Assembly: GCA_016840085.1 (NCBI GenBank)
Contig: JAEOTA010000078.1
Coordinates: forward strand, 1-64,000
Origin: Promethearchaeota archaeon
GTDB taxonomy: Archaea; Asgardarchaeota; Lokiarchaeia; Sigyniarchaeales; SOKP01
Length of the DNA stretch: 64,000 nucleotides
Direction of reading: 5' to 3'
The notes under the pieces were generated by a model that saw only the letters and a list, made by a program, of their open reading frames with translations, had not been told where the DNA came from and did no database searches. Below are positions 7,449 through 60,935 of the stretch, in pieces (position 1 is the stretch's first letter; each line of letters opens with the position of its first letter). The translations under genes were made by a program, and so were the position numbers.

Positions 7449-9533
7449 ATGTATATAGAAGCTTGGGTAATATGGTTGATTCCATTAATTGGTTCCTTTA
7501 TAGCTTATGGGATCGCCAAGAGGAAAAAGTCATATGCCGGATATTTTTCAGTAGGTATATCGATTGTGTGTTTTTTTTTATCCTTAAAAATTTTATACGA
7601 TATTTTCACATCTACTCTACCTCTACCCTACCAAGACACATTCAATTTATTTTACGGTTTTGGAGTAACTTATTTAGAATTTGGTATATTGATTGATGAG
7701 TTTAGTATATTCATAATAACTATTATTGCTTTTATTTCAATTTTGGTTTTTTTCTATAGCTTGGGATACATGCATGAAGAAATCGATTTAGGTCGATATT
7801 GGTTCTGGATGAATCTCTCATTAGGTTCTATGTTTCTTTTGGTATTATCCAATAATTTTATTGAAATGATATTATTATTTCTCATGATCAGTCTTTGTAA
7901 TTGGGGGCTAATCTCATTCTGGTATAAAAAAACAGACCCAAGTCCGGTTCCTGGTTTTGATACAGAGGGAAAATATAATAGACACTGTGGAACTAAGGCT
8001 CTAATAACTACTTTTATCGCGGGTTGCTTTATGGAGGTTGCAATTATTTTACTCAGATTCGCTACTATGAATTCTTTTGCTCAACCTACTTTTAATTTTT
8101 TGGCGCTAAGTGAAAATAATTTTTGGGTAATTGAACTTCTAAATGCTGGACTTCTTCCTCTATTCTCAATATTGATGATTTCCAGCCTTCTCGCAAAAAG
8201 TGCTCAATTCCCATTTCATGATTGGCTTCCTGAGTCGACAGCGGGACCTATAACAACTTCCACATTAATACATTCCGTGACTACAATAAATATAGGAGTC
8301 TATATACTTGGCAGGTTCTTCTTAATAAATTTTAACCTCTATTCTTTATCGGGTGCTTCTGAGTTCTCATTACTCTTTGAAATTGCGATGATATGCGGAC
8401 TAATAACTATTATATTGACTAGTTTTTATGGAATAGTAGAGAGGGATCTAAAGCGAATTCTTGCTTTTTCAACTTCGAATCAGATGGGATACATATTCTT
8501 TATATTCGGTGTTGCCGGTCTCTATCTTAATTATTCAGCATTTGTTGCAGGTGTTCTTTATATCCTCGCACATAGCATATTCAAATCGCTTCTCTTTTTA
8601 AGTTCTGGTTTAATAATACGCTCAACAGGTATAAAAAATGTCTATGAAATGGGCTCCCTTAGAAAATATATGAAAAAGACTTATATCTTAATGATGATAG
8701 GAACATTTTCAATGGTTGGAATCCCTCCATTGGTGGGATATCTTAGCATTCAACTCTTAATTAGCGAGATATTTGTTCTCCCCCCATGGATAACTGTTCT
8801 ATTTATCGGAACATTTTTCCTAACTAATCTATATATATTTAGAATGATTGGGCTAATTTTTTTTGGTACAGAGAGCGAGAAAATCAAAAAAATCGAGATA
8901 ATGGAAAAAACACATAAGAATACCGCTATGATGACAGTTCCTCTGATTATTTTAGCTATATTGTCCATTATACTAGTCTTTTTTTACCCTACTATTATTA
9001 ATTTTATATCCGGAAGTATTCTACTGGATATTTCATTTAATAAATTGTTTTATTTCCTTTCCAACACATTATTATCTATTGGCACTTATATAATTGTTGC
9101 ATTAATTATAGTGGGCTTTATAATAACCTATCCTTTCTATTTCACAAGAAAAATCTCTCCTCATGCTATAACATCGAAATATATCATAAGAGATATACAC
9201 AAAATATTAAAGAAGCGAGTGGTCTTTAATCCTCTTTATTATTCATTTCACCGAGGGATTAACAAATTAGGAAATGCTATGAAAAACTTTCATCTATCAC
9301 TTGATAAGCTTTATCATAGTATTGGTCAAGGGATTAACAAATTAGGAAATGCTATGAAAAACTTTCATCTATCGCTTGATAAATTTTATTACAGGCTAGC
9401 ATATAGTGTTAGAAGGAGTGGTGATAGTATAAGAAAATTCCACACTGGAAAGATAAATTTAAATTTGCTTTATTATATTATCAGCATACTTTTTTCCCTT
9501 ATTATTATATATGTGTTGGTGAGGTTGAGTTAA
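7449..9533 (+). CDS. nuoL: Antiporter-like subunit L (NuoL/MrpA-like), divergent
   Basis: YSLGYM, KSAQFPFHDWLP, DLKRILAFST, HSIFKSLLFL, C-terminal lateral helix ending HTGKINLNL. Confidence 0.9.
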   Translation: MYIEAWVIWLIPLIGSFIAYGIAKRKKSYAGYFSVGISIVCFFLSLKILYDIFTSTLPLPYQDTFNLFYGFGVTYLEFGILIDEFSIFIITIIAFISILVFFYSLGYMHEEIDLGRYWFWMNLSLGSMFLLVLSNNFIEMILLFLMISLCNWGLISFWYKKTDPSPVPGFDTEGKYNRHCGTKALITTFIAGCFMEVAIILLRFATMNSFAQPTFNFLALSENNFWVIELLNAGLLPLFSILMISSLLAKSAQFPFHDWLPESTAGPITTSTLIHSVTTINIGVYILGRFFLINFNLYSLSGASEFSLLFEIAMICGLITIILTSFYGIVERDLKRILAFSTSNQMGYIFFIFGVAGLYLNYSAFVAGVLYILAHSIFKSLLFLSSGLIIRSTGIKNVYEMGSLRKYMKKTYILMMIGTFSMVGIPPLVGYLSIQLLISEIFVLPPWITVLFIGTFFLTNLYIFRMIGLIFFGTESEKIKKIEIMEKTHKNTAMMTVPLIILAILSIILVFFYPTIINFISGSILLDISFNKLFYFLSNTLLSIGTYIIVALIIVGFIITYPFYFTRKISPHAITSKYIIRDIHKILKKRVVFNPLYYSFHRGINKLGNAMKNFHLSLDKLYHSIGQGINKLGNAMKNFHLSLDKFYYRLAYSVRRSGDSIRKFHTGKINLNLLYYIISILFSLIIIYVLVRLS
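9254..9382 (+). repeat. In-frame tandem duplication in nuoL (54-nt core, 75-nt period)
   Basis: 9254-9307 and 9329-9382 match at 53/54 nt; encodes GINKLGNAMKNFHLSLDK twice. Confidence 0.95.
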
Positions 9534-33471: not shown

Positions 33472-35199
33472 TTAATAGTTTTTCATATCTTTAGCCTTAA
33501 TCAAAAACTTATCCAAATTCTGTTTAATTTCCCTTTTATTAAACTTACCTACACTAGTTCTAGGGATCTCATCAACAATGGCTACCAGTTTAGGAAGCAT
33601 CCATTTAGTTATCTTACCTTTATCAACACCTTCAGTTTTGAGAAATTCAATCAGATCATCTTCATTCTTGTCAGAATTAGGTATAAGTTTTACTATAGCA
33701 AGAGTTTTTTCTCCCCATACTTCATCTGGAACGCCTACAACTGTTGCTTCAAGCACAAAATTTGCCATAGCAGCCAAATTCTCAAGTAATACTGTAGGAA
33801 TACTTTCTGCTCCGCTTCTGATGATATCAGACATCCTATCCGCTATAATTATGAAGTCTTCTTCATCAACTTTAGCAACATCCCCTGTATGAAACCAACC
33901 ATCGTACCATACATCAGCGGTCTTTTCAGGATTCTTATAATATTTTTCCATTACCCAAGGACCACGAATAACTATCTCTCCAAGTGTTTTATTATCATGG
34001 GGAATTGGTTTTCCATTCTCATTAACAATTTCAACTTCAAGTCCTGGAATAGGTAATCCTGTCTTTACTCTGACTTCATCTAGTTTCTCTTTCGACCAGT
34101 TCCTCATGTATTTCTTTACAAATGCCGAAATAGTAGTCGGTGCCGTCTCTGTCATCCCATATCCAGAACTTGCAGTAAATCCAGGAATTTTTTTCTCGAT
34201 CTTTGTTTTTAATCCTAATGGTAGAGCTCCGCCACCCACGCTTACCTGTATAAGACTGCTTAAATCATACTTATCAAGATCTTTATACTCAAGAAGCAAG
34301 GCTAGAATCGTTGGAACCACAGCAGTAGATGTCACTTTCTCAGTTTGAACTAATTCACAAAAACCATCAACAGTGAAGGTACCTGGAAGTACAATCTTTA
34401 CACCTAAAAAGGTGTAGATAAAAGGAGCACCCCAACCATGGATATGAAATAGAGGTGTGATTATCATAGGAACACCATTCTCACCAAGATAAACACGTGT
34501 AGGATCGTTGATAAAAGCACTATAGGCTATCATGTGTAAAGTAAATAAGTATAGAGCTTTATGAGTGAACATAGCACCTTTCGGAAGTCCAGTGGTTCCA
34601 GTAGTATAACAGAGAGTAGCATAGTTATCCTCACTTAAATAGGGCCATTCAAATTTATCAGATTCTTGTGAAAGCAACGCTTCATACTCATAAAGTTTCT
34701 CTATCTTTGTATCAGGCAGTCCTGGCTTATCGGACATATAGACAAATTTCTTAACTGTATCTTTTATTTTGTCATAAACTGATTCTAATAATGGTAGAAG
34801 TAAATCATCAAAAAATATCACTTTATCCTCCGCATGATTAATTGTATAAATTATGTGATCTTGAGAAAGTCTTATATTAATTGGATGGAGCATTGCTCCA
34901 CTGCAGGGAGCAGCATAATAAAGTTCTAGGTGTCTATGTGTATTAAGTGCCATGGTGGCAACCCTGTCACCAGGTTCACCAGGCTTCCCAGGTATTACAT
35001 CTAAAGTCTTTAATACATTTGCCAGACGACATGCACGCTTATACCACTCAAGCCACGTAAAGCGATAGAATTCACCAGTGATATGGTTTCTATAGACTAC
35101 ACCTATTTCATTTGGATAGGTTTTCACTGGTCTTTTCATAAAAGTCGTGAGGAGTAGTGGATAGTGAGTGCTAAATTCAGGATAGGTTTTGTTGACCAT
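33472..35199 (-). CDS. Fatty acid--CoA ligase (AlkK/DmdB-like)
   Basis: YTTGTTGLPKG, GYGMTE, HTGD, PRTSVGK with catalytic Lys. Confidence 0.93.
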   Translation of the reverse strand: MVNKTYPEFSTHYPLLLTTFMKRPVKTYPNEIGVVYRNHITGEFYRFTWLEWYKRACRLANVLKTLDVIPGKPGEPGDRVATMALNTHRHLELYYAAPCSGAMLHPINIRLSQDHIIYTINHAEDKVIFFDDLLLPLLESVYDKIKDTVKKFVYMSDKPGLPDTKIEKLYEYEALLSQESDKFEWPYLSEDNYATLCYTTGTTGLPKGAMFTHKALYLFTLHMIAYSAFINDPTRVYLGENGVPMIITPLFHIHGWGAPFIYTFLGVKIVLPGTFTVDGFCELVQTEKVTSTAVVPTILALLLEYKDLDKYDLSSLIQVSVGGGALPLGLKTKIEKKIPGFTASSGYGMTETAPTTISAFVKKYMRNWSKEKLDEVRVKTGLPIPGLEVEIVNENGKPIPHDNKTLGEIVIRGPWVMEKYYKNPEKTADVWYDGWFHTGDVAKVDEEDFIIIADRMSDIIRSGAESIPTVLLENLAAMANFVLEATVVGVPDEVWGEKTLAIVKLIPNSDKNEDDLIEFLKTEGVDKGKITKWMLPKLVAIVDEIPRTSVGKFNKREIKQNLDKFLIKAKDMKNY

Positions 35200-35507: not shown

Positions 35508-36368
35508 ATGAACAATAGCAAATTGATGACTATAGATGAGGCGATTTCAACATATGTCCAAGATGGTGATTTAGTAGGAATAGGAGGACTTTCTTTCTGG
35601 AGAAAACCAATAAGTGCTTGTAGAGAAATAATCAGACAAGGTAAGAAAAATTTATCATTGTGTACGTTTGTTGGGGGAATTGAGGTTGATTTACTTATAG
35701 CAGGGGGATGTATCTCAGAAGTAAGAAGCTGTTTTGTAGGAATGGAAATTTTTGGTATGGCACCACATTATAGAAAAGCTGTAGAAGCAGGTGCTATTCA
35801 TGTATCAGAAGAAAGTGAGGCTACTATTGCTTTAGGATTGAGAGCATCTTACTTGAAAGTACCGTTCATGCCTTTAAAAGGTATTATCGGGACTGATATG
35901 GCCAAAGTGAGGAATGATATTAAACAAATTGAGGATCCACTTGGTTCAGAAACTCAGGTTATGGCGGTCCCTAAGATCGATTTAGATGTAGCAATAATTC
36001 ATGTGCCTTATGCTGATGAATTTGGGAATGGAAATATTGCTGGAGCTGTTTGGATGGATGCAGATATGGGAAAAACAGCAAAAAAAACAATTATAACGTG
36101 TGAAAAGTTAGTTGAAACAGAAGATATTCGATATTTACAAGGCAAAGCCCAATTACCTATGCAAACGACTAGTGCTGTTGTGAAGATTCCTTTTGGGGCT
36201 CATCCTACCTCATGCTATCGCAAATATACATTTGATGCTCTACACATTCAAGAATATCTAAAAATGGATTTCAGTGAATATAAAAAGAAATTTATTGATG
36301 TTAATTCTCATGCTAAATACTTGGATAATGCTGGAGGAGCTCAAATGATATTAAATATCTTGTTGTAA
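35508..36368 (+). CDS. Class I CoA-transferase-fold alpha subunit (GctA/IpdA-like)
   Basis: DGDLVGIGG..RKP, PFMP, DVAIIH..AD..GN, PFGAHPTSC. Confidence 0.88.
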   Translation: MNNSKLMTIDEAISTYVQDGDLVGIGGLSFWRKPISACREIIRQGKKNLSLCTFVGGIEVDLLIAGGCISEVRSCFVGMEIFGMAPHYRKAVEAGAIHVSEESEATIALGLRASYLKVPFMPLKGIIGTDMAKVRNDIKQIEDPLGSETQVMAVPKIDLDVAIIHVPYADEFGNGNIAGAVWMDADMGKTAKKTIITCEKLVETEDIRYLQGKAQLPMQTTSAVVKIPFGAHPTSCYRKYTFDALHIQEYLKMDFSEYKKKFIDVNSHAKYLDNAGGAQMILNILL

Positions 36369-43405: not shown

Positions 43406-43464
43406 ATTTCATTACCCTTTCAAATAAACTTTTACAAATACTATATACACATATTTAATTTTAT

Positions 43465-43548
43465 TATAATGAAATTGATTTTTCAGTAATATAAAGATTA
43501 TAATATCTTCACTTTTTTATATGAAAGTAAATTTTCAGGATTATAAGA
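43465..43548. promoter_or_regulatory. 84-bp conserved non-coding element, copy A1
   Basis: 75/84 nt identical to 49606-49689 without gaps; two TGAAA-N6-TTTCA inverted repeats around a near-palindrome AAGATTATAATATCTT. Confidence 0.75.
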
Positions 43549-43980
43549 ATAAGTTTTAACAATATAATAAGTAATTAAATTATATTCTTGTTAAAGATAG
43601 AGATATCCTTGAGATTAAACCTCATTGGTTTAATACGGATTAACTCCGTTTTACTTGTTTTAATTGATGCTCACTACAAGTTATAGAAATTAGAAAGAAA
43701 AAAAATAAGTAAATGACAATATAATAATTCAATTATTGCCCTTGAGGGTATTATAGATTAGATTTTTTGTATTATAATTAATATAATACTTTGGTTCTTT
43801 CCTACCTAAATTTAATTTTACGTTAGTGAAAAATTGACTACCTTTATAAATAATCAAAAGTATATAATTACTTAAGATTTTTATTACGTAGATTATATTT
43901 TACGTCAGTAAATGAATATTTTTTTTTAATAAATAGATGAATATTTAAGTAAATAAAGAACGGAATAAGTTGAAAATCTT

Positions 43981-44766
43981 ATGGCACAGAAACAAATTCC
44001 TGAAATTGAGAAAGAGTGGTCTAAAATATCTTTCAAATGGCGGAGATTATTACCAAAAACGCAAGATCGACCACCTTCTCCAATAAAATTTGAACCTGAT
44101 GAAAAAGTTTTAAATGAGCTCATTGAACGATCTAATAAAATCATAAATGATATTATCACAAAGTCAAAGATTAAAGCTAGTGGTCATGCTAAATTAATAT
44201 CAACAGATAAAATTGTAATAGATCCACGTGTACGGTGGAAATGTCAAATTCCCGTGTGTTTTGGTTTTGGAACGAGCTTAAATTGTCCTCCACATTCTCC
44301 AACTGCCGAAGAAATGAGAGAAATTGTTAATAGTTATAAACATGCAATTTTCATCTTTTTCTATCCACCGATAAAAAACCATGTTTTTCCTAGCATTCTT
44401 CTAGGTGTTCAAGGAGATATAAATTTATTAAATCAAATGGTATCAATGATAGAAGCAGAAGCAGCATACATGGGATATTATCTTGCTATGGGATTTAAAG
44501 GTGGACCTTGTGTTGGTTGCGGATTTTTTTCTCCAGAATATTTTAAAGAATTAATGCAACAAAAAAAGATACCCGTCTGTCCTGTGCTCGATAATCAAAT
44601 GTGTCGGCAATATTTAAGAGCTCGACCAGCTTTAGAAGCATGCGGAGTGGATAGTTTTGCTACATCGGTTAAATGTGGTGAAAAGGCGCCGTTTGTAATT
44701 AATCCCGAACATCCACAAGAATCAGTACCATTCGTTGTTTGGCATGGTATTGTTTTAATAGTTTAA
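43981..44766 (+). CDS. DUF2284 family predicted metal-binding protein
   Basis: DPRVRWKC..PVC, CPPHSP, GGPCVGC, ARPALEACGVD. Confidence 0.85.
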   Translation: MAQKQIPEIEKEWSKISFKWRRLLPKTQDRPPSPIKFEPDEKVLNELIERSNKIINDIITKSKIKASGHAKLISTDKIVIDPRVRWKCQIPVCFGFGTSLNCPPHSPTAEEMREIVNSYKHAIFIFFYPPIKNHVFPSILLGVQGDINLLNQMVSMIEAEAAYMGYYLAMGFKGGPCVGCGFFSPEYFKELMQQKKIPVCPVLDNQMCRQYLRARPALEACGVDSFATSVKCGEKAPFVINPEHPQESVPFVVWHGIVLIV

Positions 44767-44807
44767 TAAAATATGGCATAAGAAAATATGAGAGGTAAAT
44801 CTACACA

Positions 44808-45470
44808 ATGAAAAACATAAGTTTAGAATATGAAAGTAAAACGAGAAGTGATGAATATTATATTAATAATATCATAGAAGCAGTTAGTGTACTTGATTTT
44901 TTTTCAATGAAGGATGCAATAAAGGAAGCAATAGATATGGGTGTCCCAATGGTTGATATAATTAAAAAAGGTGTTTTAGTAGGATTAGGAGAATCAGGAG
45001 AAATGGGACTTATATTAGCAGCAGAAGCTCTTGAAGGAGAAATCATATCTGTTGATGAAGAAGAGCAGAAAAGATTAGCTAAATCTCGAAATTATTCTGG
45101 AAAAGTCGTTATCGGGACTATAAAAGGAGATATTCATAGTTTGGGTAAAAATATTGCAAGCATTATAATGAAATCGTATGGTATGGATGTTATCGATCTT
45201 GGTGTAAATGTAGAACCTAAAAAATTTGAAGAATTCGCCTATTTGCCAGATGTTAAAGTTATTGGTATATCTTTTCTTCTTTCTGCATCAGAACCCAGAA
45301 TTAGAGAAGTAATGTCTTTATTAAAAAATGGAGAATTAAAAAATAAAGTAAAAGTAATTCTAGGAGGTGCTGCTGTATCACCAGAAATCGCGGAAGAAAC
45401 GAACGCAGATGCTTATGCCATAGATGCTTTACAAGGTGTTGATATTATCGAAGAGTGGTTAAGAAGTTAG
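44808..45470 (+). CDS. Corrinoid (B12-binding) protein, MtaC/MttC-like
   Basis: GTIKGDIHSLGKNI (DxHxxG), VIDLG, ILGGA, ADAYA. Confidence 0.9.
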   Translation: MKNISLEYESKTRSDEYYINNIIEAVSVLDFFSMKDAIKEAIDMGVPMVDIIKKGVLVGLGESGEMGLILAAEALEGEIISVDEEEQKRLAKSRNYSGKVVIGTIKGDIHSLGKNIASIIMKSYGMDVIDLGVNVEPKKFEEFAYLPDVKVIGISFLLSASEPRIREVMSLLKNGELKNKVKVILGGAAVSPEIAEETNADAYAIDALQGVDIIEEWLRS

Positions 45471-45575
45471 AATTATTTAATACTTCTTTATTTTTTATTG
45501 TTTTTTTTCAATTATTTTAAAAATGAACATACATCTAAATTAATAAGAGATTTCCAATCCAAGAGGTGCACTGAT

Positions 45576-47582
45576 ATAGAGAAAAAGAGACATACTCTTA
45601 TTTTAGAGCCTATTTCCAAGAGATTAAGTGTGGATGAGGGTTTATCGATTTATGAAGCAATTTTGGCATTAAACTTTCCAATAGGTGCATTTTGCGGAGG
45701 TAAAGGAACATGTGGAAAGTGCATCATTCATATTTTAGATTCTAATCCTAAAATTTCAGAACCATCCGAAAAAGAAATTAAAATTTTAGGGAATGAAAAA
45801 ATAATAGAAGGCTACAGGTTGGCATGTCAAACAAGAATTTTAGGAGATTTAAGAGCATATCTTACTGATTCCTTAATTCCAAAATCACCTATAATTTTAG
45901 TCGAGTCAGATTTAGAATCTCTTGGAATAAATGATAAAATCAAAATTCAACCGATTATTGCTTCCCAATTATATGAAGTTAAAAATGCAGATTTAACCAA
46001 TCCAAGGAATGATTTATCTCGTTTAGAAGACGTTATAATAGAAAAAAGCGATAACTTTAAAATATTTAAAAATCACACGTTATCCTATTTAAATGATTCT
46101 CTTTATAATGTTACAAAAAAGCTTCCCCAAATTATGAGAAAACAAAATGGTAAAATTACTGCCTTTTTCAGAAAGCTCTCATTGGAAGAACCATGGGTTC
46201 TTTATGATGTTGATGCTGGAAATGTTACTGACAAGATGTTTGGATTAGCAGTCGATATTGGAACTACTACTATTGTAGGATATTTAATTTATTTAAGAAC
46301 AAGCGAAATTGTAGCTATATCTGCCATGCTGAATCCTCAAGTTATGATCGGTGAAGATATTATTTCAAGAATTACATATATTGTAAAAAATAACGCAATG
46401 GATAAAGCTAAAGGATTATTAATTAATGCTGTAAATCACATACTCGAGGATTGTTGTAATAAGGCAAACATTTCTATTTCAGAAGTTAGAGATATTTCTA
46501 TTGTGGGTAATACTGCAATGCACCACATGTTTTTTGGAGTACCCTCTGAGTTTTTAGCAGTTTCACCTTACAACCCAGTATTTAAAGCTCCAATCAATTT
46601 AAGTGCTGGTACTCTTGGTATCAAATGTAATCCAAATGTTAATGTATATTCTCCTCCTGTGGTTGCAGGTTATGTAGGAACAGACACAATTGGATGTATT
46701 GTATCATCTAAAATCAATACATACGATAAATATTCTCTCTTGATTGATATTGGGACTAATGGGGAACTTGTATTGGGAAATAATGAAGGCCTTGTTACGG
46801 GTTCATGCGCTGCAGGTTCAGCTTTGGAGGGCGTTCATATTTCGCATGGTATGCGAGCTTCAGAGGGTGCAATAGAATCTGTCATAATAGATAGAGAAAC
46901 ATTAGAACCTTCTATAGGGGTAATAGGAAGCCAAACTCCACTTGGATTGTGTGGTTCGGGACTTATTGATGTTGTAGCCGAAATGCTGAAATCAAAAATT
47001 ATTACTCGTGCGGGAAAATTTAATAGTAAATCAGCAAAAGTAATTAATCACCGAAGAGTTGTGAAAAAAGAAGATGGATACCATTACATTATATATAATA
47101 AAGTATGGGATAATGAACCCTTTCAAACAAGTACTAATTATAATAATATTAGGGAAATTACAATTTCTCAAAAGGATATTAATCAGCTTCAATTAGCAAA
47201 AGGAGCATTTTTAACTGCAGGTAATTTATTACTTAAAATGGAAAATAAAAAACAAAATGATCTTGAGCAAGTTCTCTTAGCAGGAGGTTTTGGAACTTAT
47301 ATTAATAAAGAAAATGCTGCTTTTATCGGTTTATTCCCTGAAGTTGATCAAGAGAGCGTTTTCCAAATAGGGAATTCAGCGGGAGTTGGGGCACAATTAT
47401 TTATAAGAGATATTAAGCAGAGAACTTTAGCGAATAAAATCGCCCATAAGATAAGATATCGTGAAATAGCATCATCACCACTATTTCAACATGAATATAC
47501 TTTTTCTCTTTATTTCCCACACTATGATCTCGACAAATTTCCTATAATAAGACAAGAGTATAATGAAATACCTTTAAAATGA
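45576..47582 (+). CDS. Reductive activator of corrinoid proteins (RACo/RamA-like: 2Fe-2S + ASKHA ATPase); possible ATA start at 45576
   Basis: CGGKGTCGKC...RLACQ, VDIGTTT, DIGTNGE, GLCGSG, LAGGFG; SD GAGGTG 7 nt before the ATA. Confidence 0.92.
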   Translation: MEKKRHTLILEPISKRLSVDEGLSIYEAILALNFPIGAFCGGKGTCGKCIIHILDSNPKISEPSEKEIKILGNEKIIEGYRLACQTRILGDLRAYLTDSLIPKSPIILVESDLESLGINDKIKIQPIIASQLYEVKNADLTNPRNDLSRLEDVIIEKSDNFKIFKNHTLSYLNDSLYNVTKKLPQIMRKQNGKITAFFRKLSLEEPWVLYDVDAGNVTDKMFGLAVDIGTTTIVGYLIYLRTSEIVAISAMLNPQVMIGEDIISRITYIVKNNAMDKAKGLLINAVNHILEDCCNKANISISEVRDISIVGNTAMHHMFFGVPSEFLAVSPYNPVFKAPINLSAGTLGIKCNPNVNVYSPPVVAGYVGTDTIGCIVSSKINTYDKYSLLIDIGTNGELVLGNNEGLVTGSCAAGSALEGVHISHGMRASEGAIESVIIDRETLEPSIGVIGSQTPLGLCGSGLIDVVAEMLKSKIITRAGKFNSKSAKVINHRRVVKKEDGYHYIIYNKVWDNEPFQTSTNYNNIREITISQKDINQLQLAKGAFLTAGNLLLKMENKKQNDLEQVLLAGGFGTYINKENAAFIGLFPEVDQESVFQIGNSAGVGAQLFIRDIKQRTLANKIAHKIRYREIASSPLFQHEYTFSLYFPHYDLDKFPIIRQEYNEIPLK

Positions 47583-47671
47583 GATTTTAAAAAAAATTAA
47601 ATTAATGATATATTTTTTACTTTAGGCGGTATTTATGTACAATAGTATAAAGATAAGTTAAAAAAGATACA

Positions 47672-49477
47672 ATGAAAACAGGAAAAGGAAGAATTTTAAA
47701 AAGAAAATCAGGCAATCGTAGATATGATAGTTTTTGGGTTTATATTCCTAGTAAGATCTCCAAAGATTATGGTTTTCCTTTTAGAGATAAAGAAGAAGTT
47801 CTGATAGATTTAATAGGAGAGCACTTGGAAATTCGTAAGATCTACAATTTAAGTGAACTTACAAAAGTGTATAGCATTGAAGATGCTACAATCCCGAAGA
47901 TAATAGAAAGTAAAGCATCATTGAATAAGGATAAACCATTTATCTATTACCAAGATAAAATCTATTCATATCAAGATGTAAATACAATTTCAAATCAAAT
48001 AGCTAATGCAATTTTAAAATTGAATAAAGAATTACAATTGGATGATCCTAAAATTTCTTTAATATTACCTAATTGTCCAGAATCTCTTTTTTGTTGGTTT
48101 GGTGTAGCAAAAGCAGGTTGTGTTTTTGTACCTATTAGTTATTTGTTAAAAAAAGATTTATTAGAATTTGTGCTGAAAAACAGTGATACTGAGATTTTAA
48201 TAATTGATTATAAATATTATACTAATTTTAAAGAGATTAGTGAGAATTTACACAAAATAAAAAAAATCTTTATTCGAAATGCACCAGATAATTATAAATT
48301 CGATCAAAAAAGTGTCGATTTTAAAGAACTCTTCTCGGAAAATTACGAGAACCATAAAATTAATATAAGGAGTTTTAATCCTCTTGAGATCTCATATACA
48401 TCAGGAACTACTGGTAAACCCAAAGGAGTTTTGTATAGGAATTATTATACTTTGTCAGGAATTAGTGTAGGAAGAGAATGGGAAGTTTTAGGACTTAATA
48501 GCAAAATTATCAAATTTTATTGTTCCTTACCATTATTTCAAGGATTTGTACGATATTTTGTGATAATTCCCGTAATATATTTTGATGGATCGATAATAAT
48601 TGCTGAAGATTTTGATGTTTCAACTTTTTGGAATGATATAAATCTCTATAAACCTAATTGTTTTTGTTATTATGGTGCACATTTAACAGCGTTAGTAAAT
48701 GAACCTCCTAAAGAAATAGATAGAAATCATTCAATTAAATATGCATTTGGTGCCGGTGCCTTAAAAGAAGTATGGGAAACCTTTGAAAGAAGATTTGGGG
48801 CACAAATTATCGAAATGTGGTCTCTAGTTGAAGGTATTGGACTTACTATTAATACTAAAGGTTCTAAAGGGGGAAAGCTAGGATCTATAGGAAAACCGGC
48901 AAGAGGATTTGAGATTAAAATTGTTGATTTAGAAGGAAATGAAATACTCCCAGGACGGGATCATCTTGGTGAAATTTGTGTAAGACTGAGACTGCCTTTT
49001 GAACTTGAATATTATAACTTAAAAAAAGAAACAATAACAAGAAAAGCAAAAGAAAGATGGGTTTACACAGGTGATTTTGGTTATTCAGATCATGAAGGTT
49101 TCATTTATTATTTAGGAAGGAAATCAGATATGATTATTAGAGGAAAACAGACATTTTTTGCTATAGACATCGAAATAGTCGCAAATTCACATCCCCTCAT
49201 AGTTAGAAGCGCTGTTTTTGAAGTTAATAATAAAAATTCCACTGAAAAAGAATTAAAAATATGTGCTGTAATTAAAAAAGGAGCAAAAATTACTCCTAAA
49301 GAGTTTTATGACTTTTTAAAGCAAAATCTTGCCTATTTTATGGTTCCGCGATATATTGAATTTAAAAATGTATTACCAAAAAACGCAAATGAATTTATTC
49401 AAAAATTCATCCTTAGAAAAGAATGGAAAAGAGTAAAATCACAAAAGAATACATATGATGCTAAAGCATCATTTTAA
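47672..49477 (+). CDS. CaiC-like AMP-binding acyl-CoA ligase homolog with an N-terminal AbrB/MazE-like domain
   Basis: N-terminus ...FWVYIPSKISKD..FPF...EEVLIDL.GEHLEIRK; YTSGTTGKPKG, YTGD, GRKSD; degenerate A10 motif PKNANEFIQK. Confidence 0.85.
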   Translation: MKTGKGRILKRKSGNRRYDSFWVYIPSKISKDYGFPFRDKEEVLIDLIGEHLEIRKIYNLSELTKVYSIEDATIPKIIESKASLNKDKPFIYYQDKIYSYQDVNTISNQIANAILKLNKELQLDDPKISLILPNCPESLFCWFGVAKAGCVFVPISYLLKKDLLEFVLKNSDTEILIIDYKYYTNFKEISENLHKIKKIFIRNAPDNYKFDQKSVDFKELFSENYENHKINIRSFNPLEISYTSGTTGKPKGVLYRNYYTLSGISVGREWEVLGLNSKIIKFYCSLPLFQGFVRYFVIIPVIYFDGSIIIAEDFDVSTFWNDINLYKPNCFCYYGAHLTALVNEPPKEIDRNHSIKYAFGAGALKEVWETFERRFGAQIIEMWSLVEGIGLTINTKGSKGGKLGSIGKPARGFEIKIVDLEGNEILPGRDHLGEICVRLRLPFELEYYNLKKETITRKAKERWVYTGDFGYSDHEGFIYYLGRKSDMIIRGKQTFFAIDIEIVANSHPLIVRSAVFEVNNKNSTEKELKICAVIKKGAKITPKEFYDFLKQNLAYFMVPRYIEFKNVLPKNANEFIQKFILRKEWKRVKSQKNTYDAKASF

Positions 49478-49513: not shown

Positions 49514-49555
49514 CTTCTTTTTTATTCACATTTTTTTTGTTAAATATCATTCTCA
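49514..49555. repeat. 42-bp T-rich direct repeat, copy B1 (terminator-like)
   Basis: 36/42 nt identical to 51713-51754. Confidence 0.65.
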
Positions 49556-49605
49556 ATTACATTAATTATCTAAGATTTCTATTTCTAACCCTTAATTAAT
49601 TTAAA

Positions 49606-49689
49606 TATAATGAAATTGATTTTCCAAGTATAAAAAGATTATAATTTCTTTATATTTTTATATGAAAGTAAATTTTCAGGATTATAAGA
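49606..49689. promoter_or_regulatory. 84-bp conserved non-coding element, copy A2
   Basis: 75/84 nt identical to 43465-43548 with the last 35 nt identical; 90 nt upstream of the CoA-transferase beta gene. Confidence 0.75.
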
Positions 49690-49779
49690 GTTAGTTAAAT
49701 TTGAAAACACTTAAACCAAATAATTTAACACGATAAAAACACTTAATACACTTATAACTAAAATGAAGAAGGAAGAAAA

Positions 49780-50664
49780 ATGAGTGAATATTCAAAAGAC
49801 TATACTATAGATGAAATAATGACTGTTTTAATGGCGAGAGAGGTTAAAAATGACGATGTAATGATTGTTGGTGTCGCAACTCCTATGGTATGGGCTGCTT
49901 TTACATTAGCAAAAGTGACTCATGCCCCTAATGCGATTTATCATTATATTATGGGAAATACATTCGTAGCAGAGCCTCGACAAGTAAGTTTACTCTATCT
50001 GGAGATGAATACAGCAAGAGCATATCGATTTCAGGATAGTGTAGAATGTACTTTAGAATCTCTTCCATCAGATAAACTAACTACTATAGAATTTTTTCGA
50101 CCTGCTCAGATTGACCAATATGGAAATACAAATAATATATGCATTGGGGATTGGGATAAACCAAAAATTAGACTCCCTGGAGCTGCGGGCATTCTTGATT
50201 TTAGCATGTTCTATGCCCGTGGATCTTTCCTCTATACACCTCGACATGATACAAGAACCTTTGTTCCTACTGAAAAACTTGATTTTGTGTCTGGCGTTGG
50301 ATTTCCAGACGGAAAACCTTCCATATGTGGTGGCTCAGGACCTCAGTGCGTTGTTACAAATCTTGCTTATTTAGATTTTGATGATGATACTAAAAGCATG
50401 AAATTAGGATCAATTCATCCCAGTGTTGACCTTGAAACTGTAATAGGATCAACTGGATTTGAGCTAATCATACCGAATGAGTTGAAAGAAACTTTACCAC
50501 CAACAATAAAAGAAATTCAATTACTAAGGGAAAAAGTGGATCCATTAAATATAAGGAAGTTAGAAGTTCTTTCAGGAAATGAACGCGAAGAGCTACTAGA
50601 TGATATAATTCAGAAAGAATTAGCAAAGCAAAACAAATTTCCAAAACTAATAAATAACAATTAA
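49780..50664 (+). CDS. Class I CoA-transferase-fold beta subunit (GctB/IpdB-like)
   Basis: AQIDQYGNTN, RLPGAAG, DFVSG, VVTNLA, SIHP. Confidence 0.88.
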   Translation: MSEYSKDYTIDEIMTVLMAREVKNDDVMIVGVATPMVWAAFTLAKVTHAPNAIYHYIMGNTFVAEPRQVSLLYLEMNTARAYRFQDSVECTLESLPSDKLTTIEFFRPAQIDQYGNTNNICIGDWDKPKIRLPGAAGILDFSMFYARGSFLYTPRHDTRTFVPTEKLDFVSGVGFPDGKPSICGGSGPQCVVTNLAYLDFDDDTKSMKLGSIHPSVDLETVIGSTGFELIIPNELKETLPPTIKEIQLLREKVDPLNIRKLEVLSGNEREELLDDIIQKELAKQNKFPKLINNN

Positions 50665-50815: not shown

Positions 50816-51253
50816 ATGGAAAGAGTAAAACACGAGATTATAAGTCTAGATGAGTTGGAAAGAACAATATATAATATATTTAAAATCCATAATGAGATAC
50901 TTCTATGTTATTTATACGGTTCTTATATATCAGATAGAAAAACTAGATATAGCGATATTGATATTGGAATTTTCCTAGATAAAGCATTCAACAAATCCTA
51001 TTTATATCAAGTAGAATTAAGTTTAGAAATAGAAAAAGAATTTAATAATAAAGTTGAAATTGATTTATGCATCTTAAATGAGGCAACACCTCGATTTTTG
51101 TATAATGTTATAAGTAGTGGAAGGAATATCTATAAAAAGGAAGAAAAAATCCAAAATGAGTTTGAAATAAGAATTCTATATTATTATTTAGATATTAAGC
51201 CAATGTTAGAGATGTATGATAAAATAACCGTCATGGAGGCGCTTAAAAATTAA
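50816..51253 (+). CDS. mntA: Minimal nucleotidyltransferase antitoxin (MNT/MntA)
   Basis: YLYGS...SDIDIG, IDLCILNEA. Confidence 0.88.
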   Translation: MERVKHEIISLDELERTIYNIFKIHNEILLCYLYGSYISDRKTRYSDIDIGIFLDKAFNKSYLYQVELSLEIEKEFNNKVEIDLCILNEATPRFLYNVISSGRNIYKKEEKIQNEFEIRILYYYLDIKPMLEMYDKITVMEALKN

Positions 51254-51692
51254 AATAAATCGCGATTTAGTAATTACGAGGTTTAATAAATTAAATGAAT
51301 TATTAGATATCTTAAATGAGATCAAAAGCATCAAGAAAGAAGATTTTCTTTCTGATTATAAGAACTATTTTACGGCTCAGAGAACTTTAGAGATCTGTAT
51401 AAACATATGTATAGATATCGGAAACCACATTGTGACCCTCAATAATACAGAAAAACCTGAAACATTTAGTGATGTCATTAAAATATTAGCCAAACATAAT
51501 GTTATAAGTGAGGAGCTTTCAACTCAGCTAATTAAAATGGTAAAATTCCGCAATTTATTAGGACATTTTTATTTAGAAATTGATAATGAAATAATCTACA
51601 ATATTATTCAACATAAAATTACAGATTTTTATTCATTTAAAGGAGCGATATTAGCTAAATTTAAAGAGAATCTTATAGAAAATTCAGATTAA
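51249..51692 (+). CDS. hepT: HEPN/DUF86 RNase toxin (HepT); probable ATT start at 51249
   Basis: Frame extends to IKINRDLVITRF...AQRTLEICINICIDIGNHI; RNLLGHFY (RxxxxH-Y) motif; overlaps the MNT stop. Confidence 0.88.
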   Translation: MKINRDLVITRFNKLNELLDILNEIKSIKKEDFLSDYKNYFTAQRTLEICINICIDIGNHIVTLNNTEKPETFSDVIKILAKHNVISEELSTQLIKMVKFRNLLGHFYLEIDNEIIYNIIQHKITDFYSFKGAILAKFKENLIENSD

Positions 51693-51712: not shown

Positions 51713-51754
51713 CTTCTTTTTTATACACATTTTTTTAATTGCGTATCATTCTCA
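51713..51754. repeat. 42-bp T-rich direct repeat, copy B2
   Basis: 36/42 nt identical to 49514-49555. Confidence 0.65.
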
Positions 51755-51799
51755 TTTAATATAAATGTTTAAATTTAGATATTTGGATCAAATTAAATT

Positions 51800-54949: not shown

Positions 54950-55315
54950 TTATTTTATTCTTTTGATGATAAGAAGACCTATAGCTAAGATACAGCCAAT
55001 TATACTCCAGATTATAGCAACCCACAGCCAGACTAATATATTACCCGGGAAGAAAGGATAAAATATCCAAAGAAGTACTAAGATAACTGCCCAAAAAACT
55101 CCAATTATTTTTACATTTTTTTTACTCTCACTCATGAAAAATATTGAACCAATTACTCCACCAATTATGCTCCAGATTATCGCCAACCACATCCAAAAAA
55201 ATATATCACCGGGATAGAAAGGATAGGAAATCCACAAAAATACTAAAATGACTACCCAAATAATTCCAAATATTTTTTTTGTTTTTTCTATATCTGCCAT
55301 TTTATCTAGCACCAA
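54950..55315 (-). CDS. Four-TM membrane protein built from an internal duplication
   Basis: Two copies of W..IL..LWI.YPF.PG.I..W.W.AIIWSIIG. Confidence 0.75.
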   Translation of the reverse strand: MVLDKMADIEKTKKIFGIIWVVILVFLWISYPFYPGDIFFWMWLAIIWSIIGGVIGSIFFMSESKKNVKIIGVFWAVILVLLWIFYPFFPGNILVWLWVAIIWSIIGCILAIGLLIIKRIK

Positions 55316-60882: not shown

Positions 60883-60935
60883 GAAATAAATTACACTTTT
60901 AATTAACTATTTATTTTTTTACTCTCTTCTATATT

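Follow-up and report, generated by a model that had tools for sequence, protein, structure and literature searches.

What does a gene do when it joins a domain of a DNA-binding type to an enzyme that appears to have lost its chemistry? The question is raised by an intact open reading frame at 47672..49477 (+ strand, ATG start, 601 amino acids) of the window, that is, the whole stretch of 64,000 nucleotides analyzed here (contig JAEOTA010000078.1 of a Promethearchaeota archaeon, assembly GCA_016840085.1). An initial annotation, made from the sequence alone, described the product as an AbrB-like domain fused to a probably inactive CaiC-like acyl-CoA ligase, and proposed a one-component regulator with an 84-bp repeat as its candidate binding site. 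As a whole, that observation is confirmed, and its interpretation is supported in part: there is a good probability that the fusion protein is a one-component transcription regulator whose dead ANL body senses a ligand and which binds the palindrome TTAC-N4-GTAA. The fusion is probably a gene switch, so far undescribed, that was built from an enzyme and senses a metabolite.

Domains of the fusion protein and erosion of its ligase body

More than 100 full-length homologues of about 600 amino acids were found, which belong to Promethearchaeota/Lokiarchaeota where they are named, with one labelled Helarchaeota. A profile of the N-terminal domain matched 52/151 genomes of the class; nearly all of these matches stand at the beginning of a reading frame some 600 amino acids long, and the other classes sampled yielded only short stand-alone proteins. 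The source genome (G000) also holds a paralogue of 46% identity (C72:40767). Compared with 11 orthologues, residues 1-58 have a dN/dS of 0.05-0.18 and the large ANL domain one of 0.13-0.25, and both the N-terminal domain and the ANL body are therefore under purifying selection. A pseudogene or an assembly artefact was rejected in view of the homologues and of dN/dS values well below 1. In an IQ-TREE phylogeny of the ANL body (83 rows, with eight near-duplicate or distant rows omitted; quick search, LG+G4, SH-aLRT only), 41 fusions formed one branch with a support of 100, and this branch lies within the CaiC-like ligases. Monophyly of the designated outgroup was incomplete, but the fusion branch is independent of it. 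The fusion is one Promethearchaeia (Lokiarchaeia) family of single origin.

Residues 1-58 (47672..47845, +) are predicted to fold and dimerize as a swapped hairpin of the AbrB/MazE type. Their model (pLDDT 89) is a beta-beta-helix-beta-beta monomer of about 50 amino acids, with strands at 7-13, 18-24, 43-48, and 51-56 and a helix at 27-30. In a VIA structure comparison, 10/11 matches were AbrB, SpoVT, MazE, VapB, or archaeal AbrB-like chains (Z 2.5-4.5), including archaeal 5itj, the top match, and C56, while Foldseek ranked MazE and VapB first with weak E-values. In the two-copy model, the contacts b1-b3', b2-b2', and b4-b4' build an interleaved homodimer barrel in the order described for VapB2 (PMC3326315). 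Its ipSAE was 0.52, a mark reached by 20/30 solved homodimers and 1/23 monomers in the calibration, versus 0.00 for the best control, with 100% agreement between runs and pLDDT of at least 73; this pass may reflect a memory of solved AbrB dimers. Against 1.8 billion proteins, the N-domain profile found 379, mostly stand-alone and of 55-90 amino acids. Of 72 stand-alone homologues, 25 match PF04014 (best E 1.5e-5) and eight match TIGR01439; matches to these models were found for 3/64 fusion N-domains, with weak E-values, and not for the domain of the window. Searches with the profile in the PDB and with the domain in the ESM Atlas gave no result. Conservation along the fusion protein is highest in residues 1-30, and eight of the 14 Lys/Arg residues of the domain fall within amino acids 1-18. 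Fold matches, the PF04014 matches of stand-alone homologues, and the dimer model thereby agree with the AbrB-like N-terminus that had been proposed, and the swapped-hairpin fold and dimer are recovered by prediction, with the window's own domain lacking a profile match.

The remainder of the protein is a CaiC-like ANL body of PRK06155 type (amino acids 70-590, 47879..49441, +), recognized by Pfam (AMP-binding at 80-438, AMP-binding_C at 500-573), NCBIfam, structure match, and tree. The full-length model (pLDDT 88) has the two-domain ANL fold with a TM of about 0.84 to 4wv3, an anthranilate-CoA ligase, and the best NCBIfam models, PRK06187, PRK06155, and CaiC, all score far below their own cut-offs. 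No ligand could be assigned, as the closest solved ligases share only about 22% identity.

The roles of the ANL motifs were taken from PMC11255334, and residues were counted in the 64 nearest homologues, in 25 stand-alone CaiC-like relatives, or in 121 sequences. On the + strand, the A3 P-loop (amino acids 242-252, 48395..48427) and the A7 TGD (466-468, 49067..49075) read intact, as initially described, and the drift of YGxTE to WSLVE in A5 is seen at 383-387 (48818..48832), with the aromatic residue and Glu kept and Gly and Thr drifted. Position 383 is aromatic and E387 is conserved in 121/121 sequences, and D468 in 120/121. The claim that GRxxD is kept holds for the first half of A8, where Arg483 is retained in 59/64 nearest homologues, but not for the pantetheine-tunnel Gly, which is replaced by Lys492 (A8, 49118..49147) and is present in 25/25 stand-alone relatives versus 7/64 nearest homologues. 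Replacement of the catalytic A10 Lys, read from PKNANEFIQK as compared with PRTSVGK in the ligase at 33472, is also upheld: Phe575 (TTT, 49394..49396) occupies the lysine column, which holds Leu or Phe in 63/64 nearest homologues and Lys (10) or Arg (15) in the stand-alone relatives. Beyond what had been noticed, the A8 Gly and also the A4 His are lost, the latter giving way to Gln290 (48539..48541) in a column that is Gln in 61/64 nearest homologues and His in 25/25 stand-alone relatives. Lysine K578 of IQK was considered as a replacement catalytic residue and rejected, as all 25 stand-alone ligases have Lys or Arg in this A10+3 column, where K578 is an ordinary residue. With three catalytic residues lost, the ligase is eroded, and judging from these motifs its body probably neither adenylates (A10 Lys to Phe) nor forms the thioester (A4 His to Gln, A8 Gly to Lys). 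In the sister clade of paralogues, the P-loop and the A8 Arg are eroded too.

The palindrome TTAC-N4-GTAA as a candidate operator

The fusion gene closes a candidate target operon that begins with a gene for a Cys-rich DUF2284 protein (43981..44766, +), followed by those for a methyltransferase-type corrinoid (B12-binding) protein (44808..45470, +) and a RACo/AcsV-type corrinoid reductive activator (45576..47582, +), and it is the last gene of such an operon at 23-29 loci. Aligned DUF2284 promoters conserve TTAC-N4-GTAA about 80 nt before the start together with a TATA-like box, and often carry a second perfect palindrome just upstream of this box. In the window, the perfect palindrome lies 81 nt before the DUF2284 start (43900..43911) and is the main candidate operator. 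A second palindrome with one mismatch, perfect in many orthologues, is located just upstream of the B recognition element (BRE)/TATA region (43818..43829); it is followed by a putative TATA-like box (43843..43850, +), placed by conservation, a weak, degenerate third site, some 20 nt ahead of the main palindrome and at the alignment position of TTAC-N4-CTAG in orthologues (43881..43892), the perfect site at 43900, and the ATG at 43981. Directly before the fusion gene, two decayed tandem sites are present (47617..47648), at 47617-47628 and 47637-47648, of which the latter keeps the TAC-N4-GTA core at the -35 position where orthologues have a perfect site. Such decay would fit a shift of control to the operon promoter.

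Within 100 nt upstream of the fusion gene start, the exact 12-mer occurs at 37/66 loci and the core TAC-N4-GTA at 47/66, against shuffle expectations of 0.25 and 1.26, respectively; the count of 37 is conservative because four of the 66 rows have a mis-called start. The background of the exact 12-mer is 8/2819 genes of the source genome. The palindrome was found across at least three types of neighbourhood that have only the fusion gene in common. With a scoring matrix trained on sites before fusion genes only (maximum possible 19.3), the highest score in the window is at 43898 (17.3); among the intergenic sites of the region, 47635 and 43816 follow. The exact site is present in 27/30 DUF2284 promoters, and the two loci without any site are DUF2284-corrinoid pairs that lack the activator or fusion gene. 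A sigma-70 promoter scan, a model unsuited to archaea, gave background level. From this co-occurrence, TTAC-N4-GTAA is likely the operator of the fusion protein, and the proposal of a one-component regulator gains support from a palindrome that travels with the gene.

An unlinked gene for a 682-amino-acid membrane protein (C78:195027) is a probable trans target, as a site scoring at least 11 precedes it in 6/11 genomes that have the fusion and in none of 13 that lack it, in a comparison among kin that are not independent. The protein had no match in NCBIfam. At this gene (L193:4970-7076; G000 C78:194969-197072), the palindrome is located at -58, and an identical 16-mer occurs in G075 and G133. 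Hits of the genome scan are not reliable singly, because a top-scoring site (G000 C49:7005, at an MFS gene) failed to track the fusion; it also lies inside the coding frame and was rejected as a regulon member.

In the first two branches of the fusion clade, L150 and P0079 (labelled Helarchaeota), the His, RRRGENI, and TERI motifs are still present, and the palindrome is found upstream of both, with two perfect copies at L150. As these basal members keep ligase motifs yet carry the palindrome, the tree suggests that fusion and DNA binding preceded catalytic erosion.

Proposed mechanism and rival readings

Two N-terminal domains are predicted to interleave into the AbrB-type barrel, which, given the genomic co-occurrence, would bind TTAC-N4-GTAA. 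Because of the positions of the sites around the TATA box, the main one about 57 nt downstream and the second just upstream of the BRE/TATA region, the fusion protein would most likely repress its own DUF2284-corrinoid-activator-fusion operon, perhaps through looping between these two sites, 82 bp from each other. The ANL body keeps the adenine, Mg, and ribose contacts and is under purifying selection, and its most likely ligand is therefore an organic acid or the corresponding CoA ester, perhaps together with ATP or AMP; movement of the small ANL domain would then be passed on to the DNA-binding dimer. As the nucleotide pocket is kept and the pantetheine-tunnel Gly is lost, a free acid, with or without ATP/AMP, seems no less likely than an acyl-CoA to be the ligand, and the neighbouring genes suggest a compound on which the products of the corrinoid and acyl-CoA catabolic genes act.

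Several observations weigh against a ligand-sensing repressor of this kind. Residues 1-58 searched alone against Pfam and NCBIfam gave no match, and their structural Z-scores are low, which is expected for a monomer of 50 residues. Both sites directly before the fusion gene are decayed here, and genome G125 has the motif without a detected fusion, on a contig that ends inside the operon. In addition, A10 Lys mutants of ANL enzymes can retain the second half-reaction (PMC11255334), and the full conservation of the P-loop, E387, and D468 is also compatible with residual chemistry. Such chemistry is the basis of a different reading, in which a bifunctional trigger enzyme binds the palindrome, keeps a slow or partial reaction (adenylation, acyl-AMP hydrolysis, or the reverse reaction), and uses its catalytic cycle as the signal. 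It agrees with the conservation of A3, the A5 aromatic residue and Glu, the A7 Asp, and the A8 Arg in the subclade, and with early-branching members that already have the palindrome while keeping His, GEN, and a basic A10 residue; moreover, A10 is Arg and not Lys in 15/25 stand-alone relatives, and the subfamily therefore tolerates variation. However, the A10 residue of the fusion protein is a hydrophobic Phe, for which K578 provides no new substitute, the A4 His and A8 Gly have gone as well, and the sister clade has eroded even its P-loop and A8 Arg, which makes a trigger enzyme unlikely.

Even less probable is that the N-terminal domain mainly dimerizes, or binds DNA non-specifically in the manner of Sso7c4, and that another factor recognizes TTAC-N4-GTAA. 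AbrB-fold proteins do include chromatin-like ones, among them 5itj, the palindrome was absent upstream of 3/3 short stand-alone N-domain homologues tested, and the sites before the fusion gene of the window have decayed. Nevertheless, the palindrome precedes the fusion in neighbourhoods with no other common gene, is missing where the operon lacks the fusion, and tracks the presence of the fusion at the unlinked gene, and no part of the protein is better conserved than the basic b1-b2 loop. The 84-bp repeat as binding site, the proposal of the initial annotation, is very improbable. Its two copies (43447..43555 and 49588..49696, both +; 85% identical) bracket the operon and hold TGAAA-N6-TTTCA palindromes, and the gene does lie between them, but the first of them precedes it by 4.1 kb and three genes. 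At high identity, the element occurs in G000, G133, G075, and L031 only (3/81 searched genomes plus L031), compared with 52/151 genomes for the fusion family, and it has no match to TTAC-N4-GTAA, the best matrix score within it being 5.2 versus 17.3 at 43898; this narrow distribution and low score led to its rejection as the operator. In G075, a single copy forms one divergent control region between CoA-transferase-beta and sulfatase genes, whereas in the window this pair is split and one copy has stayed with each gene, the first with the sulfatase gene and the second with the CoA-transferase-beta gene. The element is best read as the control region of another regulator, duplicated by local rearrangement. 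Its TGAAA-N6-TTTCA palindromes (43470-43537 and 49611-49678) are a candidate operator for some regulator of the sulfatase and CoA-transferase-beta genes.

Neighbouring genes and comparison with known systems

No methyltransferase (MT1/MT2) was found in the DUF2284-corrinoid-activator cluster (43981-47582). DUF2284 orthologues are almost confined to genomes with the fusion, and DUF2284 may for this reason be the catalytic partner of the corrinoid protein; an Atlas search with it found its own family only. The activator most likely starts with ATA (45576-45578) after an AGGTG ribosome site, in a column where orthologues have ATG; in three ATA-bearing orthologues, an in-frame stop lies three codons upstream, and ATA must therefore be their start. 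Genes for the alpha and beta subunits of a GctAB-like CoA-transferase often precede DUF2284 operons. Here, these subunits (35508-36368 and 49780-50664) are 13 kb apart, while they are adjacent in relatives. In the beta subunit, whose best PDB match is GctB, the catalytic GctB residue Glu54 is missing and IMG is aligned in its place, which resembles IpdAB-type enzymes. Divergent from the alpha subunit, the intact ligase at 33472-35199 passes PRK06187 (504 bits); it scores 410 bits on the 3-(methylthio)propionyl-CoA ligase model versus a cut-off of 822, which is a lead only.

Other clades of the fusion have as neighbours either thiolases, enoyl-CoA hydratase, a BaiCD-like flavoenzyme, a molybdopterin enzyme, and an ABC transporter, or FAD oxidases and intact ligases. 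The paralogous fusion of the source genome (L156; G000 C72:30767-43518) has palindromes before itself and the next gene, one more precedes a thiolase gene 17 kb away (L197:5272), and the molybdopterin oxidoreductase beside it is split into two open reading frames in the assembly. A stand-alone N-domain homologue (L228:3001-3192, in a cluster labelled Bathyarchaeota) without the palindrome ends a methylmalonyl-CoA mutase/MeaB/CobO run, which is another B12 context. Elsewhere in the window, a second short repeat of 60 nt (49514-49573 and 51713-51772, 78%) follows the fusion gene and a nucleotidyltransferase/HEPN-like pair (50816-51692); it is T-rich and possibly derived from a terminator. Tandem duplications were observed at 9234-9383 (a 75-nt unit, twice), at 54996-55287 (165-nt spacing within a small membrane protein), and at 60890-63542 (1316 nt, gene-sized).

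A literature search for this fusion architecture or for Asgard regulons of such a kind found none, with most subscription journals outside the search. To our knowledge, an ANL ligase fold has not been shown so far to act as the sensor of a transcription factor, and transcriptional regulation in Asgard archaea is little studied. We consider it somewhat more probable than the contrary that the fusions form an undescribed family of archaeal transcription factors, with the ANL fold as sensor and TTAC-N4-GTAA as operator, in which DNA binding came first, catalysis was lost later, and paralogues specialized for different catabolic operons. Living members would then span DNA-binding ligases with intact motifs, in the earliest branches, to fully eroded sensors; the copy in the window would control a B12 operon without a recognizable methyltransferase, and its inducer could reveal the substrate of DUF2284. 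More generally, the ligands of the family would point to the substrates of uncharacterized Lokiarchaeal catabolic operons, including the corrinoid one. The family offers a concrete candidate pair of protein and operator together with a natural series from intact to dead enzyme; for BzdR (PMC3602430), this step from enzyme to regulator had to be reconstructed through chimeras.

Among known systems, CaiC-like ATP-dependent acyl-CoA ligases (PRK06155/PRK08008) are the source of the ANL body, and the fusion clade nests among them; however, the fusion reaches 256 bits versus a cut-off of 722, lacks the A4 His, A8 Gly, and A10 Lys, and adds the AbrB domain. The proposed palindromic operators and autoregulation are a likeness to VapBC2 (PMC3326315), and the predicted N-terminal swapped-hairpin dimer joined to a C-terminal domain is one to SpoVT of Bacillus subtilis (PDB 2w1t; VIA Z 3.6). 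Unlike in AbrB, MazE, VapB, and SpoVT, the C-terminal part is an ANL fold of 530 amino acids and not a GAF domain or a toxin-binding tail. The N-terminal domain also falls under the PF04014 threshold, and a toxin-antitoxin module of the MazE/VapB type was rejected, as the fusion gene adjoins those of the corrinoid activator and a CoA-transferase subunit and no toxin gene. BzdR of Azoarcus sp. CIB (PMC3602430) likewise combines a DNA-binding domain with an enzyme domain that has lost catalysis and senses the effector. It regulates genes of acyl-CoA catabolism, and its enzymatic activity disappeared along with the change to a regulator. It differs in being experimentally proven and in pairing a helix-turn-helix (XRE) domain with a shikimate-kinase fold that binds benzoyl-CoA; this domain pair is absent from the fusion, whose domains are AbrB-like and AMP-binding. 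The fusion, known from sequence and models, is archaeal, combines the AbrB swapped hairpin with the ANL fold, and has natural intermediates with intact motifs. It probably works like BzdR and shares the AbrB-plus-sensor plan of SpoVT, and it belongs to neither family.
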